Positions 16,352 to 21,352 of a stretch of 64,000 nucleotides of DNA are shown here, piece after piece. A program made the translations under genes and the position numbers. Positions within the stretch are counted from its first letter, which is position 1, and each line of letters begins with the position of its first letter. Where the stretch lies: IMG/VR virus record IMGVR_UViG_3300020433_000671, positions 11,491-75,490 of that record; one strand, given 5' to 3'. The notes beneath the pieces were generated by a model, which did not search any database, was not told where the DNA came from, and saw only the letters and a program-made list of their open reading frames with translations. This DNA comes from a virus.

Positions 16352-16486
16352 TCAATTACAATACATTAAACATGATTGATTTGTCGGATGATCATCACAT
16401 TCTTTTTCCCAAAAAGATTTTTTGGGAACTCTTTTGATATCTGACTTAGCGTCTTTGATGACGCTGAAAGGAGTAGTGAGTTTCAT
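16352..16486 (-). CDS. 44-aa CP12 C-terminus-like microprotein (not in ORF track)
   Basis: GGAGG RBS and ATGA overlap with hsp20. MKLTTPFSVIKDAKSDIKRVPKKSFWEKECDDHPTNQSCLMYCN (C-x8-C-x2-Y). Confidence 0.7.
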   Translation of the reverse strand: MKLTTPFSVIKDAKSDIKRVPKKSFWEKECDDHPTNQSCLMYCN

Positions 16487-16986: not shown

Positions 16987-17079
16987 TCATACATTATAGA
17001 AATCTTAAATGGTATACGCCGTACATTTATCATACGGATATAAACACCTATATAGTCTTAGGTAACAATGTCAAGTGGC

Positions 17080-17580
17080 ATGAAAAAATTTATTCCTTTT
17101 ATTATGCTTGCATCGGTTGGTGCTTTGATAAACCCAGTAAGGGCAGACATTACATCTAGATTTGCTTCAAGTGTACAACTAAGTGTTGGAGGTGCTCATA
17201 CAACAGCTGAGAGAATTGGATCTTCGTATTCAATTTCTGGTTCTAATATTGACACTACCGATGGAACAACTGCTGGTACAGTGTCTGCTGGCACTATAGC
17301 ATCAGGTGTTTATTCGCCTGGAACTATTGCAGCAACACAGGACACTGCTGGTGCAGCATTCAGCTTCACTCAGTCATACACTCAAGCTGACGCTATTCCA
17401 GGTAATGCTGTAACAGTTGGTGCATCACAAAACTTTGGTGATATATCAAGTGTTGCTGCTGGTACTACTGGTGATCTTGCTGGTCAAGTTACTAGTGCTC
17501 ACACTTTTGCTAGTGTCTCTGCTGGTGGTGCTAATACTACAGCTACAACTCAGTTCGTAACAGAGCTAACTATAAAATAG
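17080..17580 (+). CDS. Secreted Thr/Ser/Gly/Ala-rich beta protein (subunit A of the envelope locus)
   Basis: Sec signal MKKFIPFIMLASVGALINPVRA; contains GAAFSFTQSY. Confidence 0.8.
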   Translation: MKKFIPFIMLASVGALINPVRADITSRFASSVQLSVGGAHTTAERIGSSYSISGSNIDTTDGTTAGTVSAGTIASGVYSPGTIAATQDTAGAAFSFTQSYTQADAIPGNAVTVGASQNFGDISSVAAGTTGDLAGQVTSAHTFASVSAGGANTTATTQFVTELTIK

Positions 17581-17590
17581 GTGATTAAGG

Positions 17591-18055
17591 ATGAATAAAT
17601 TTATCCTATTATTCTTATTATTAATTCCGTCTAAAACTCTTGCAGTGCCTGTGGTCCCCAATTTCCAACAGGGAAGTATGACTAGCCATACAGAAACTGA
17701 AAGCACTATAACGGAAACCATAAATTCAGTAGATTATAGAACAGGATGGGAATACAGCGTGACTGGGGTAGGCGTTTCCAACAATGGAGAGCCACTCAAC
17801 CCCAATGTGAATACATCAACAGTGACTATAGATCCAAGCGTAGGATCAGGAGAGGGAGCAATCACAGGGAGCGTAACATCTTCCTTCGATGCTTTAGATC
17901 TCTCCAGTCAAAGCAAGTACACAATGACAACTCCAGGTGCAGCGTTTCAATTTACCCAGAGTTATCAAGGACCAGGTATGACAAATCAAACTCTCATACA
18001 GAGAACAACAGTAATAGAGTCCGTCACGGACACAACAAGCGTGTTTACCCAATAA
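17591..18055 (+). CDS. Secreted Thr-rich beta protein (subunit B, paralogue of A)
   Basis: Sec signal MNKFILLFLLLIPSKTLA; contains GAAFQFTQSY. Confidence 0.8.
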   Translation: MNKFILLFLLLIPSKTLAVPVVPNFQQGSMTSHTETESTITETINSVDYRTGWEYSVTGVGVSNNGEPLNPNVNTSTVTIDPSVGSGEGAITGSVTSSFDALDLSSQSKYTMTTPGAAFQFTQSYQGPGMTNQTLIQRTTVIESVTDTTSVFTQ

Positions 18056-19074
18056 AAGCATTATGTCTATCTGCTCTGAGTGTGGTCATTACTGCCCCTG
18101 TGAATGCACAAGGTGTAGGGGGTGTGAGTGCAACCGCAAATCCAATCGCTAATAGTTCGGGCTCGGTCACGAACCAGGCAATACAAGTTTTACAAGGTCC
18201 ATACGTAACTAACACCTATGGTGGTGGTGTATCGTGTCAGGGTACGACCCTCAATATGACACCATACATCCAATTTGCTGACTCAAGGAAAGACCCTTGG
18301 GAAGATTTCTATAACGAACCACAATACAATACTACTGATATCAGTGGTACAATGACTCCTACCTATGTTACTGTCAAGAATTATCCTTGGGAGGATTGGT
18401 ACGATGATAGAACTTATACTAATGCTGCTGGTGAAGAAGTAAGGTGGTTCCCAGATGGATCAGACATTACTATCATTGAAGATATAGATGGTCCTAATGG
18501 TGTACCAGATATAGTTGACACTGGTGGAGAGATGACCCCATCATGGTTTAAACCTGTGCGTACAGACATGAAGGCAAATCAAAGTTTTAACGTAGGTCTT
18601 TCTGCTACACTTTCTATACCATTGAACAGAGGTATGCAAAGGAGGTGTAGAGAGGCAGCAGAGGCACAGACAGCATCTGTTGTGCAGTTGACTGCTAATA
18701 AAAGATTAGACTTTGAGATTGCTCGTCTTAAAAATTGTGGTGAACTCATGAAGGCTGGTATCATGTTCCATCCTAAATCACCCTATGCATCTATATGTGC
18801 TGACGTAGTTGTTACTGCACCTGGTGGACAAATTATTCCACACGAACACCAGATACCTCAACCAAAATGGACTAACCCTTCTTCTTCAGAGGGGGTAGAC
18901 CTTTCTTCTCTCGGTAACGGTTCGTCTGTATCTCCGATAAAGTTGGACGGTAAGGTTTCTTCCCAAGAATCTTCTGAACTTTCGCAATCGTCTTCTTCAC
19001 AACAGGTTTCACAACCTTCAGGAGCAGATCTGCTAGGGGTTTGGCAAATAGGGCACTCGCTGTCGCCACAGTAG
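18052..19074 (+). CDS. Secreted putative outer-membrane protein (subunit C); probable ATA start
   Basis: The signal-like IKALCLSALSVVITAPVNA begins at ATA 18052, overlapping the TAA of B. Amphipathic NVGLSATLSIPL is followed by helices with Cys residues. Confidence 0.7.
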   Translation: MKALCLSALSVVITAPVNAQGVGGVSATANPIANSSGSVTNQAIQVLQGPYVTNTYGGGVSCQGTTLNMTPYIQFADSRKDPWEDFYNEPQYNTTDISGTMTPTYVTVKNYPWEDWYDDRTYTNAAGEEVRWFPDGSDITIIEDIDGPNGVPDIVDTGGEMTPSWFKPVRTDMKANQSFNVGLSATLSIPLNRGMQRRCREAAEAQTASVVQLTANKRLDFEIARLKNCGELMKAGIMFHPKSPYASICADVVVTAPGGQIIPHEHQIPQPKWTNPSSSEGVDLSSLGNGSSVSPIKLDGKVSSQESSELSQSSSSQQVSQPSGADLLGVWQIGHSLSPQ

Positions 19075-19774
19075 CAATTGTCGCAGTGGTTGTTACCACT
19101 CCTACTGATGGTAGGTACTGATCCATGATAGGGACAGGTTCCCAGATAGTCTCACAAATTTTACCATCAGGTGTTAGTTTATATTCTTTTACTTGCTCAT
19201 CACCTTTCTGATTTCTATCACCTATACGTCTTGCATTCTTAGGAGGACATTCGACTTCTTTAGGAATCTGACCATCTGTAGGTGGTGGGGGAGGTGGTGA
19301 TGGTGCCTCTATAGGTTCTTGTTCTTGTGTATCAACACCTTCATCACCTTTTTCTGGTTCGGTATTAATTGTTTGCCAAAATAATTCTCTAGCATCATAG
19401 TCTGCTGGTAAGTATGAAGGCATACCAGCATCACATAATGTAGTAGTTGCTTTAGGATCATCATTCACAAGGTTTTTATTCCTTGATGGATCCTTCTTAG
19501 CATTCTCTTTGTGTACTTCTACACAACCAGGCATATTAACAATAGGTGTACCAGCATTAACAGTGACTGGTACATCTATTGGTACTGCTTGTGGGGGATT
19601 AACTAACCACTCACGTGTTTCACGTATATTAATATCCCTTATATCAGCAACAAAATTATCACGAATACCTATGGTCTCAGTGCCAATCAAAGGTATTCCT
19701 GTTCCGTTGACTGTTATGTCAGGTATATCAAGTCCACGGATAGTAATATTAGGTACATTATGAATAGGATCCAT
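18872..19774 (-). CDS. Pro-rich protein with a C-terminal hydrophobic segment and basic tail
   Basis: PSPPPPPP linker, Cys pairs, VVTTTATIATVATASALFA, then a Lys-rich tail. Confidence 0.75.
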   Translation of the reverse strand: MDPIHNVPNITIRGLDIPDITVNGTGIPLIGTETIGIRDNFVADIRDINIRETREWLVNPPQAVPIDVPVTVNAGTPIVNMPGCVEVHKENAKKDPSRNKNLVNDDPKATTTLCDAGMPSYLPADYDARELFWQTINTEPEKGDEGVDTQEQEPIEAPSPPPPPPTDGQIPKEVECPPKNARRIGDRNQKGDEQVKEYKLTPDGKICETIWEPVPIMDQYLPSVGVVTTTATIATVATASALFAKPLADLLLKVVKPVVKKTIAKVQKILGKKPYRPTLSEIQTNRYREKKGLPPLKKKG

Positions 19775-19789
19775 AGGTAAGTATCCATT

Positions 19790-20047
19790 TTATTTTGGAG
19801 GTAACTCCTTCTTATAATCTTTAGGATCTTTCAATCCTTTAACAGGACCACTAGTTTCTGGCCAAGCATTTATTAGTTGTAAATATACTTCTTCTCTAAC
19901 GATTTGTCTAATCTTTTCTATCTTAGCATCCTCTCTCTTCTGAGGACCACCAGTTTGTTGGTCGATGACATGATTGCCACCGACAAACGCACCAGTTCCT
20001 ACAACTGCTGCTGCTGTTACTCCTGATGTGATCTTTTGTACGTCCAT
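19790..20047 (-). CDS. Small protein with an N-terminal hydrophobic segment
   Basis: GVTAAAVVGTGAFVGG; TAATG overlap with the upstream gene. Confidence 0.7.
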   Translation of the reverse strand: MDVQKITSGVTAAAVVGTGAFVGGNHVIDQQTGGPQKREDAKIEKIRQIVREEVYLQLINAWPETSGPVKGLKDPKDYKKELPPK

Positions 20048-20655
20048 TAACAACCCTTAAGATCTGCTGCCATGTTACCACCAAGTTCAGCACCTTGATT
20101 ACCACCAAACATTGTTACCCAACCAGCAGCAAGCCAACCAACAAAAGGTATACCACTAACGGCAGGTGCAACAGCAGTACCAACGCCACTACCAACGAGA
20201 CGACCAGTCTGTTCTCCACCACCTCTTGCTTTGATACAAGCGATTGTTTTTTCTGAGAGTTTTCCGTCTGGGTTTGCAGATGCTTGGACTGCAAGTGCTG
20301 ATGGATCAATCCATGCTGTATTGGTTGATACTGGTCCTCCATGGTGTGCTGCACCATCGGCAGTAAATTCAATAACTTGTTTGGTAGTATTATTAGCGAG
20401 TCCCAGAAAGCCGCCTTTACTTTTTTTATCAATGGTAGTAATCATAGTCTTAGGATCGTTAGCTCTGTAACGTACACTATAACCATCTTCACTAACATTT
20501 GCTTCATATGAAGTGTATGCTCCTACTGGTATATTCAAACTAGGAAGTTTAGATGAATCTCTCCTAGCAAGCATACCAATCATACCTATATGAGATATAC
20601 CTATGACTCCACCCAATCCAAGGGCAAACCATTTTGTTAAATTAATTTTATCCAT
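20047..20655 (-). CDS. Membrane protein with a C-terminal glycine zipper
   Basis: N-terminal TM FALGLGGVIGISHIGMIGML; GRLVGSGVG...GWLAAGWVTMFGGNQGAELGG (GxxxG repeats). Confidence 0.75.
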   Translation of the reverse strand: MDKINLTKWFALGLGGVIGISHIGMIGMLARRDSSKLPSLNIPVGAYTSYEANVSEDGYSVRYRANDPKTMITTIDKKSKGGFLGLANNTTKQVIEFTADGAAHHGGPVSTNTAWIDPSALAVQASANPDGKLSEKTIACIKARGGGEQTGRLVGSGVGTAVAPAVSGIPFVGWLAAGWVTMFGGNQGAELGGNMAADLKGC

Positions 20656-20670
20656 AACGATACTCGTAAT

Positions 20671-20913
20671 TTAAAAAGGTGAACTTGGAACAGGAAGTCC
20701 CATACTAGCACCATCAGTAGAGGGAATTTCAGGAAGTCCTACATCACCTGAAAGAGCACCGCCAACAAGACCGCCAGCAAGACCACCTAGTGCTTTCTCT
20801 TTTATGTTTTCTATGATTGCATCCTTGCGTACATAAACGTAGCCAGCAGTGCCAACAACGGCAAGAGATACAACAGCAGACGCAACAGCGAGTACATTAA
20901 TTACTTTTTGCAT
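20671..20913 (-). CDS. Small signal-anchored membrane protein
   Basis: Likely start MQKVINVLAVASAVVSLAVVGTAGYVY. Confidence 0.75.
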   Translation of the reverse strand: MQKVINVLAVASAVVSLAVVGTAGYVYVRKDAIIENIKEKALGGLAGGLVGGALSGDVGLPEIPSTDGASMGLPVPSSPF

Positions 20914-20917
20914 GATT

Positions 20918-21352
20918 TTAAATTTCGTAAGTTTTCTTTTCTTTGCTATTAGGATCAACCGCAATGATTTTTAATGGTGCTTGCTCAATACGAATAGTTT
21001 GAGTAGGACCACCGTTTCCTCCATTTCCACCACCATTACCATTAGTCATCTTCATAGTACCATCTCCCTTCTTAGAAGCGGTCTGGATTCCGAAGCTAGC
21101 TAGCACCCCTGTAAAAACCGAAGCTATGAAAGTTGGATCGATTTTCTGTTGTGGTACACCTGGTATGGCGACGTAGTTTAAAGTCAAGATTCCTCCAGAC
21201 CAGGCAAGAACAGTAATGCGAACAAATGTACTAATGATTGCTGCTTGTTCATCAGCGTCTGGAAGTATAGCATCCTTAGCTTTGCCAAAGAAACCTTTTT
21301 TCTTTTCTTCTGGTTGTTCTTCAACAACCTCATTTTTAATCTCTTCGGGCAT
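20918..21352 (-). CDS. Two-TM membrane protein (holin-like topology, inferred)
   Basis: FVRITVLAWSGGILTLNYV and DPTFIASVFTGVLASFGI, with charged termini. Confidence 0.75.
   Translation of the reverse strand: MPEEIKNEVVEEQPEEKKKGFFGKAKDAILPDADEQAAIISTFVRITVLAWSGGILTLNYVAIPGVPQQKIDPTFIASVFTGVLASFGIQTASKKGDGTMKMTNGNGGGNGGNGGPTQTIRIEQAPLKIIAVDPNSKEKKTYEI

Follow-up and report, generated by a model that had tools for sequence, protein, structure and literature searches.

A candidate late envelope-disruption module with an overprinted gene pair, shared by T4-like as well as T7-like cyanophages

The viral DNA analysed here, a stretch of 64,000 nucleotides from IMG/VR record IMGVR_UViG_3300020433_000671 (hereafter the window), carries eight consecutive genes between hsp20 and regA, which we label A to H and consider as a candidate module for opening the host envelope late in infection. 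All eight open reading frames (ORFs) are present at the positions listed in Table 1. The minus strand holds 54 of the 56 non-overlapping ORFs of at least 120 amino acids in the window; the sole two on the plus strand are A and C, B being nested in the frame of the latter. A-B-C is the sole plus-strand unit of the window and H-G-F-E-D converges on it from the minus strand, in agreement with an earlier sequence-only reading of this stretch, which had described three plus-strand genes facing five on the minus strand. The source record is a 75-kb fragment with an estimated completeness of 42%; genome-wide statements below are taken from complete relatives. The window comes from a T4-like cyanomyovirus: the 5.5 kb around the module is 83% identical to P-SSM7, a T4-like cyanomyovirus of Prochlorococcus, and 110 cyanophage records match this region.

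Table 1. Genes and promoter-like elements of the module, with positions in the window.
Feature	Family or counterpart	Position	Strand	Description
Late-promoter-like element CTATATAG		17048..17055	+	upstream of gene A
Gene A	T4-GC237, phrog_564	17080..17580 (alternative ATG 17068)	+	Thr/Ser/Gly/Ala-rich protein, predicted to be exported
Gene B	T4-GC236, Pfam DUF6322, phrog_650	17591..18055	+	protein predicted to be exported
Gene C	T4-GC235, phrog_848/1755, Syn9 gp165	17746..19074	+	442-codon ORF
Gene C, first part		17746-18054	+	basic pre-sequence
Gene C, second part		18055-18111	+	signal-like hydrophobic and AXA region
Gene C, third part		from 18112	+	putative exported domain
Gene D	T4-GC234, phrog_570	18872..19774	-	Pro-rich, C-terminal anchor
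Gene E	T4-GC231, phrog_22018	19790..20047	-	small accessory protein
Gene F	T4-GC219, phrog_605, Syn9 gp163	20047..20655	-	transmembrane and glycine-zipper segments
Gene G	T4-GC713, phrog_33185/568	20671..20913	-	single N-terminal transmembrane segment, Gly-rich stretch
Gene H	T4-GC218, Pfam DUF6450, Syn9 gp161, P-SSP7 PSSP7_043	20918..21352	-	holin-like, two transmembrane segments
Late-promoter-like element ATATATAATATAG		21380-21368	-	upstream of H, heads unit H-G-F-E-D

The genes themselves are already catalogued as conserved hypothetical cyanophage proteins (T4-GC 218, 219, 231, 234-237, Sullivan et al. 2010, PMC3037559; DUF6322, DUF6450; Syn9 gp161-gp167). In P-SSM7 and P-SSM2, the counterparts of A to H are hypothetical proteins of the eight T4-GC clusters in Table 1. 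The Syn9 counterparts, gp167 to gp161, likewise lie between hsp20 and regA. Only B and H among the eight proteins have Pfam families. All eight match PHROGs without known function; G additionally matches phrog_568, labelled 'plasmid stability'.

The gene order is strongly conserved. A-B-C facing D was invariant in 80 IMG/VR loci, where E, G and H usually follow and F was patchy by BLAST. Hundreds of cyanomyoviruses carry the families, as do T7-like cyanopodoviruses and phages of a third type, and the phage records with H (437) and with C (426) are all cyanophages. T4-like phages carry the module among replication genes (regA, gp62, gp43), far from the fibre genes, and in P-HM2 the neighbours of the block A-D with G and H are hli and psbA genes in place of hsp20 and regA. 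The T7-like phages P-SSP7 and NATL1A-7 share a co-linear cassette, D'-H-B-C, between the tail-fibre genes and terS/terL, which occupies the slot of the T7 lysis genes 17.5, 18.5 and 18.7. In P-SSP7 it consists of PSSP7_042 (phrog_9426, D'), 043 (DUF6450, H), 044 (phrog_650, B) and 045 (phrog_1755/848, C). This cassette was complete in 68 of 80 further T7-like podovirus loci, the remaining 12 having fewer parts. Podoviruses lack A and retain only D', H, B and C; E is missing from them and from Syn9. Contigs of the third type carry H-A-B-C facing D, F and G, beside tail-assembly-chaperone and Mtd_N fibre genes; one of them (L280) carries F, and in another (L278) the module adjoins the tail-assembly-chaperone gene. 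The co-conservation that the sequence-only reading called for is borne out by this survey, in which five families (A, B, C, D and H) travel together across phage types.

Outside phages, homologues were found at only 13 loci in 185,579 prokaryote species genomes, all of them on contigs of metagenome-assembled genomes (MAGs) or single-amplified genomes, or on one isolate-assembly contig. Four of the 13, those whose gene content was read (L089, L094, L096 and L098), look like phage DNA. The loci in Nonlabens xiamenensis 1Q3 (L096, 188 kb) and in the Euryarchaeota TMED129 MAG (L094) have T4-like cyanophage content, with hsp20, regA, dam and the whole module. Those from the assembly of a single Prochlorococcus cell and from a Synechococcus MAG (L092 and L095) lie on contigs of 189-194 kb, as long as a cyanomyovirus genome. 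We take these four (L092, L094, L095 and L096) to be contamination, mis-binning or infected cells and not host genes. With no convincing cellular homologue, the module appears to be confined to phages.

An odd feature of the module lies at the junction of B and C. Relative to B, C is always read in the -1 frame, and the last ~105 codons of B double as coding sequence for the N-terminal extension of C. In this phage, the signal-like segment of C (KALCLSALSVVITAPVNA, followed by QG) lies inside the ORF, where it is preceded by a basic extension of 103 codons overlapping B, and no ATG, GTG or TTG stands at the start of this segment in the window, P-SSM7 or P-SSM2. Among 53 unique junctions from the myovirus clade, the C frame is open for ~99-118 codons before the stop of B and the only canonical start that it contains there is an ATG, which lies 96-107 codons upstream of that stop. 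This ATG is built from a conserved Trp codon of B (GGA TGG gives ATG G). Synonymous-codon shuffles of B gave an expectation of 4.5 stops in the overlap; none was observed in 39 of 39 loci, and the probability that the frame would stay open had a median of 0.0025 per locus. Read in this frame as controls, the paralogue A and the initial ~50 codons of B have 7.5-7.7 stops per 100 codons. The depletion of stops relative to this control argues that the B/C overlap is translated in both frames.

Starts of C inside B were found across lineages. In 60 unique T7-like junctions, C starts at an ATG, GTG or TTG 22 or 37 codons before the stop of B, each time on a Trp codon of B, and initiation at the ATG at -22 gives a classic signal peptide of 31 residues. 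Phages of the third type have the start of C overlapping the stop of B as ATGA. The overlap amounts to 96-107 codons in this myovirus clade and to 18-37 codons in podoviruses. Since divergent relatives of C, retrieved by a profile search of 1.84 billion proteins, carry an ordinary Met, signal peptide and AXA site, the hydrophobic segment of C is most probably a genuine export signal. In the window, the product of C begins with a basic pre-sequence of 103 residues (net charge +15), which is presumably removed between VNA and QG. The alignment of C contains four invariant cysteines, and the mature N-terminus is invariant over ~35 residues.

Two other routes to C were considered and set aside. 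An ATA start at the TAA of B is refuted by relatives in which the codon there is ATA, GTA, AGT or others, by P-SSP7, in which the signal core of C starts 10 codons before the stop of B, and by the podoviruses, which consistently use ATG, GTG or TTG 22 or 37 codons upstream. A programmed -1 frameshift from B into C was rejected as the main route: inspection by eye revealed no X_XXY_YYZ slippery site in the junctions, and the open frame always begins 2-15 codons before the start codon, as independent initiation predicts. A minor B-C fusion product may occur. Because canonical starts inside B were found across lineages, neither an ATA restart nor a frameshift is needed.

Existing GenBank annotations mis-model this gene pair. 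P-SSM7 lacks an annotated gene B since the long C ORF was called instead (L001, 4089-4553), and in P-SSM2 (L002, 6462) and P-SSP7 (L083, 3821) C is begun at an internal codon, with loss of the signal peptide. The other end of C also overlaps a neighbour: the 3' ends of C (plus strand) and D (minus strand) share 203 nt (18872-19074), and the variable Ser/Gln/Pro-rich tail of C is antisense to the most conserved part of D, its anchor and cationic tail. This tail is lacking from podovirus and some Synechococcus-phage C proteins and may for that reason be a by-product of an open antisense frame instead of a functional domain.

We next describe the features that may direct the products to the envelope, with hydrophobic segments scored by Kyte-Doolittle scans (KD19). 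Both A and B begin with basic, hydrophobic and AXA-type regions: A has the signal-like MKKFIPFIMLASVGALINPVRA, with predicted cleavage between VRA and D, and B has the signal MNKFILLFLLLIPSKTLA, with predicted cleavage between TLA and VP. B is a member of DUF6322 (PF19847; 125.2 bits, E=1.7e-36, gathering threshold 30.6 bits), and A matches phrog_564 (E=3e-61). The matches of A to the families of B are weak (DUF6322, 16.5 bits, E=0.013; phrog_650, E=0.0099), and because the DUF6322 score is below the gathering threshold, we consider A to be a distant paralogue of B.

The minus-strand products are of a different kind. H is a member of DUF6450 (PF20048; 115.1 bits, E=1.2e-33, gathering threshold 25 bits), as is PSSP7_043 of P-SSP7 (111 bits), and the H of the window is 39-48% identical to the H of T7-like loci. 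It has charged ends and two transmembrane (TM) segments (KD19 1.64 and 1.52), the second of them rich in Gly, Ala and Ser; the alignment has an invariant Arg in TM1 as well as invariant Trp, Ser, Tyr and Asp residues. Like holins, H is a small membrane protein with at least one TM domain and a charged hydrophilic C-terminus, and it is late, with the timing being that of its orthologue. G has an N-terminal TM segment (KD19 2.24) and counterparts in Syn9 gp162 and P-HM2 PHM2_192, the latter late. F combines an N-terminal TM segment (KD19 1.73), a predicted periplasmic domain and a C-terminal Gly-zipper segment (KD19 1.49). D consists of a variable N-terminus, a conserved Cys-containing domain, a Pro-rich linker, a Thr/Ala-rich C-terminal anchor (KD19 1.55, borderline) and a cationic tail that forms an amphipathic helix (hydrophobic moment, muH, 0.61; charge +3 to +7). 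Its alignment has three invariant cysteines and one that is nearly invariant, and its anchor region (residues 213-269) matches phrog_9426, the family of podovirus PSSP7_042. The invariant or conserved cysteines of C and D fit an oxidising compartment. The sequence-only reading had assigned a Sec signal or TM segment to all eight proteins, which is clear for A, B, F, G and H; however, D is borderline, E has only a weakly hydrophobic N-terminus (KD19 1.39), and the signal of C is not N-terminal in its ORF.

The promoter-like elements may place the module among late genes. Upstream of A, TAAATA was found in 34 of 47 orthologous loci at the same distance from the start codon as CTATATAG in the window, and upstream of H in 29 of 46 at the same position as ATATATAATATAG; in most orthologous loci the motif takes the form CTAAATA or TATAAATA. 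T4-type late promoters have a TATAAATA-like motif ~10 nt upstream of the transcript start, and it is the position of the orthologous motif that CTATATAG and ATATATAATATAG occupy here. Since orthologous loci mostly carry TAAATA at the same distance, the window elements are probably late-promoter variants and not a separate class. The TATATA-like elements reported earlier are present, but the special, non-late class to which they had been assigned is not supported by the orthologues. D, E and mostly G lack a late-type element upstream in orthologous loci and are tightly coupled to the preceding gene, and E and F are coupled through TAATG. Taken together, the sequences suggest two convergent late transcription units. 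Gene A has in-frame ATGs at 17068 and 17080; the latter is the likelier start, given that orthologous proteins open with MK(K/R)F and that a mere 12 nt separate the late-type motif from 17068. Near hsp20, the window also contains a 44-aa ORF at 16352-16486.

Expression of orthologues largely agrees with these elements. By RNA-seq of P-HM2, the orthologues of A, D, G and H fall into the late class, that of B is late/middle and that of C middle. P-SSP7 genes 29-51 are given as late in the part of PMC7885011 that cites Lindell 2007. These timings bear on the possibility that the module is an auxiliary uptake system of porin-like or binding proteins that raises nutrient import during infection, as pstS of the relatives does. 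In P-SSM7 and P-SSM2, the module is indeed near pstS and DUF680 genes, and its products are predicted to be exported. However, the auxiliary metabolic genes of P-HM2 are middle in the same RNA-seq study, whereas most module genes are late. Auxiliary genes are usually host-derived, whereas the module has no host homologue that we could find, and its proteins match no porin or binding-protein family in Pfam or NCBIfam. We consider an uptake system extremely unlikely.

The products do not appear to be part of the phage particle. None of T4-GC 218, 219, 231 and 234-237 was detected in the virion proteomes of S-SM1, S-PM2 and Syn9. This absence, together with the co-conservation of the module, agrees with the earlier proposal that the products act in the envelope of the infected cell and not in the virion. 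It would equally fit a membrane-associated helper of virion, possibly tail-fibre, assembly or maturation that is itself not incorporated in the particle, as would late expression. The T7-like cassette directly after the tail-fibre genes and the module beside the tail-assembly-chaperone gene in L278 also point in that direction. Tailed-phage particles, however, assemble in the cytoplasm, out of reach of Sec-exported, Cys-bearing proteins. In addition, the T4-like module is distant from the fibre genes, and S-PM2 builds similar virions without a module. An assembly helper is very unlikely in our estimation.

We then considered lysis. Kongari 2018 lists P-SSM7, P-SSM2, P-SSP7, Syn9 and many other cyanophages as spanin-less, and suggests that a C-terminally anchored inner-membrane protein together with an outer-membrane protein could replace spanins. 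Sullivan 2005 reported that T7 genes 3.5, 17.5 and 18.5 are missing in P-SSP7. Six peptidoglycan-hydrolase Pfam families (T4 lysozyme, amidase_2, M23, SLT, M15_4 and NlpC/P60) are missing from the complete genomes of P-SSM7, P-SSM2, P-HM2, P-SSP7 and NATL1A-7, and PF00959 was not found in the 75-kb record of the window. No lysozyme gene adjoins the module in the loci examined (P-SSM7, P-SSM2, P-SSP7, NATL1A-7, P-HM2, Syn9 and the third-type contigs).

Module and lysozyme exclude each other in the cyanomyoviruses tested. A T4-type lysozyme is present, and H and C are absent, in S-PM2, S-CAM7, ACG-2014f, S-CREM1 and S-SRM01, and the reverse holds for P-SSM7, P-SSM2, P-HM2 and Syn9; among these nine phages, five have only the lysozyme, four only the module, and none both. 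The S-PM2-type lysozyme occurs in 65 Synechococcus-phage records; the four lineages tested among them besides S-PM2, namely S-CAM7, ACG-2014f, S-CREM1 and S-SRM01, are those counted above. S-PM2 lacks H, B and C, and its T4-type lysozyme is near a gene for a 'lipoprotein precursor'. The 'putative lysin' p157 of S-PM2 (L190, 3035-5730) is annotated with 72 aa, and the lysozyme match lies in a 169-aa open frame. The lysozymes of S-CREM1 and ACG-2014f each form the C-terminal portion of a longer protein of ~400 aa. The lysozyme of S-PM2 is followed by the 'lipoprotein precursor' p160 and small ORFs, and the p157-p160 region may be a classical lysis cluster, though Kongari 2018 lists S-PM2 as spanin-less. 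A T7-type amidase in place of the module was sought in Syn5 and P60 and not found; these two phages have neither the amidase nor the module.

This exclusivity also bears on late remodelling of the envelope apart from lysis, in which the module would mask or remove receptors, blocking superinfection and keeping progeny from being lost on debris. All products are envelope-directed by prediction and not in virions, and the module is common to unrelated phages of the same hosts, as a host-surface function predicts. Known exclusion or receptor-masking genes (T4 imm, sp; T5 llp), however, are single, small, early genes, in contrast to a late module of seven to eight genes. Receptor masking predicts neither mutual exclusion with lysozyme nor a position in the T7 lysis slot, and the module has no PADLOC match. 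We regard it as unlikely.

Structure and homology searches gave little indication of function. Pfam, NCBIfam, PADLOC and, for C, D and B, profiles from the Protein Data Bank (PDB) returned nothing beyond cyanophage DUFs and PHROGs without known function, and ESM Atlas returned only viral hypothetical clusters. For B, WD40 matches were treated as composition or repeat artefacts; no stretch passes alone. The AlphaFold2 model of mature C (predicted local distance difference test, pLDDT, 52) has beta strands at 47-167 followed by a 42-residue helix, and that of B (pLDDT 62) has two long terminal strands at 9-41 and 101-135 (33 and 35 residues). Wide fold searches with VIA-align gave a best Z of 4.4 for C, to single generic long helices from a low-confidence model, and of 3.0 for B (OmpX, toxin-pore stems and an ENA fibre), with none of the matches of either protein above noise. 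The sequence-only reading had cast C as an outer-membrane channel akin to TolC or CsgG. This idea gains no support: the pLDDT is low, the fold matches are limited to single helices (Z at most 4.4), and C matches no outer-membrane family in Pfam (E at most 1) and no PDB profile.

The larger proposal is that of a trans-envelope secretion or surface-fibre apparatus, composed of A and B as polymerising subunits, C as outer-membrane channel and D-H as an inner-membrane platform. A and B are indeed paralogues, the terminal strands of B, predicted with low confidence, resemble those of oligomeric barrels or fibres, and the invariant N-terminus of mature C suggests tight protein contact. Nevertheless, Pfam, PDB profiles and fold search show no likeness to TolC, secretins, CsgG, ushers or pilins, the module contains no ATPase or other energy source, and podoviruses dispense with A. 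A late surface structure would also bring no obvious benefit just before the cell is destroyed. Such an apparatus is in our judgement distinctly unlikely.

Comparison with known lysis proteins reveals both likenesses and differences. As in two-component spanins (lambda Rz/Rz1, T7 gp18.5/18.7 and T4 PseT.3/PseT.2), the products appear to be late, non-virion envelope proteins, with a putative inner-membrane-anchored partner that would cross the periplasm through a Pro-rich linker (D) and exported partners with conserved cysteines. Moreover, B and C share DNA in different frames, a rare arrangement that typifies Rz/Rz1, and the podovirus cassette is in the same genome slot as T7 18.5/18.7. Unlike in spanins, there is no sequence similarity, and five to eight genes take the place of two. 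The lipobox with Cys at +1 that characterises outer-membrane spanins is lacking in A, B and C: a lipobox-like motif was found in 0 of 56 pre-sequences of A, 1 of 62 of B and 3 of 65 of C, and the cleavage sites are AXA-type. Inner-membrane spanins are type II proteins with an N-terminal TM domain and a periplasmic coiled coil; D has no N-terminal hydrophobic segment, its sole one being C-terminal, and C, for which a 42-residue helix is predicted, has a cleavable-type signal. Finally, C is in the -1 frame of B and not the +1 frame, and both overlapped partners are probably exported.

H resembles class II holins and pinholins, such as S21 of phage 21 and, by position, T7 gp17.5. It is ~85-170 aa long and late, and has charged termini and two TM segments rich in Gly, Ala, Ser and Thr with a glycine-zipper-like second helix; in podoviruses it lies in the T7 holin neighbourhood. 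Unlike them, it shows no homology, is unusually conserved with invariant Arg, Trp and Asp, and has no adjoining endolysin gene. The most conserved part of D, which corresponds to the whole of podovirus D', ends in a cationic amphipathic helix and in its physico-chemical type resembles the phiKT gp28 'disruptin', a cationic peptide that disrupts the outer membrane without spanins (bioRxiv 10.1101/515445). Unlike gp28, the D helix is behind a hydrophobic anchor and would face the cytoplasm by the positive-inside rule; D is also much larger and without sequence similarity to gp28.

We propose that the eight genes are a candidate late, phage-only module for non-canonical lysis or envelope disruption, a reading for which belief and doubt are evenly balanced. 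It is the best current candidate for how these cyanophages burst their host cells. Non-canonical lysis or a spanin system was one of the roles offered by the sequence-only reading, and it is favoured by the late timing, the T7 slot, the lack of known lysis genes and the mutual exclusion with lysozyme; the other two, surface-filament secretion and superinfection exclusion, gained no positive evidence. The alternatives discussed above each fit the timing, the position in the genome and the exclusivity with lysozyme less well than the lysis reading does.

Several points weigh against lysis. The module is not universal, being absent from S-PM2, Syn5, P60 and P-SS2. In Syn5, P60 and P-SS2 the three hydrolase families tested there (PF00959, PF01510 and PF01464) are missing as well, so that a lack of known lysis genes does not set module carriers apart. 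The lysozyme-positive myoviruses may be one clade, in which case the exclusivity could go back to a single event. None of the eight proteins matches a peptidoglycan-hydrolase Pfam family, and the module appears to contain no lipoprotein. The anchor of D is C-terminal and merely borderline hydrophobic, and export of its 215-aa N-terminal part lacks a signal peptide to account for it. H seems to be conserved far beyond usual holins, with its invariant Arg in TM1, which hints at a specific partner or activity. C is middle-class in P-HM2, and the predicted models are too weak for fold assignment of B or C.

If the module does lyse the cell, the following sequence of events can be envisaged. The two convergent units would be switched on with the structural genes, as is suggested by the late timing of orthologues and the late-type motifs of the window. 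A, B and C would be exported by Sec to the periplasm or outer membrane, and C, translated from a start buried in B, would be genetically locked to its partner, like Rz/Rz1. The C-terminal anchor of D, with its cationic amphipathic tail, would fix the protein in the inner membrane, and D would span the periplasm via its Pro-rich linker, so as to link to or disrupt the outer layers in a spanin-like manner together with C, and perhaps A and B. H would act as a holin-like inner-membrane trigger, together with G and F. The peptidoglycan would be attacked by a hydrolase of unrecognised fold within the module or by host autolysins, and the joint outcome would be the opening of inner membrane, wall and outer membrane for progeny release. 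This specific scheme, a self-contained and endolysin-independent opening of the diderm envelope with the exported, beta-rich A and B assembled with C into a structure of the periplasm and outer membrane, D as anchor to the inner membrane, H as trigger and wall activity from an unrecognised fold or subverted autolysins, is a tentative and rather doubtful extension of the lysis reading.

In the published accounts that we found, the T4-GC clusters are neither handled as one module nor tied to the podovirus cassette or to lysis, and we found no discussion of the B/C overprinting in them. New here are the lysozyme exclusivity, the quantitative test of B/C overprinting across three lineages and the refuted ATA start. 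Independently of the lysis reading, B/C is a clean natural case of conserved overprinting, in which the start of one gene is made from a Trp codon of the other.

A large part of the photosynthesis in the ocean is carried out by Prochlorococcus and Synechococcus, and lysis by viruses is one of the main ways in which the carbon and nutrients of these cells get back into the water. For most phages of these hosts, the time since the first genomes of 2005 has brought no identified holin, endolysin or spanin (Kongari 2018, Sullivan 2005). The module provides a concrete set of genes for testing, one that hundreds of isolates have conserved and that recurs in two to three unrelated lineages of phages. 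If it is a lysis system, its mode is probably unlike the lambda, T4 and T7 paradigms, and its genes would be markers for lysis timing in field transcriptomes. Should the endolysin-independent scheme hold true, the module would represent a new mechanistic class of phage lysis, one that releases a large share of ocean cyanophage progeny.

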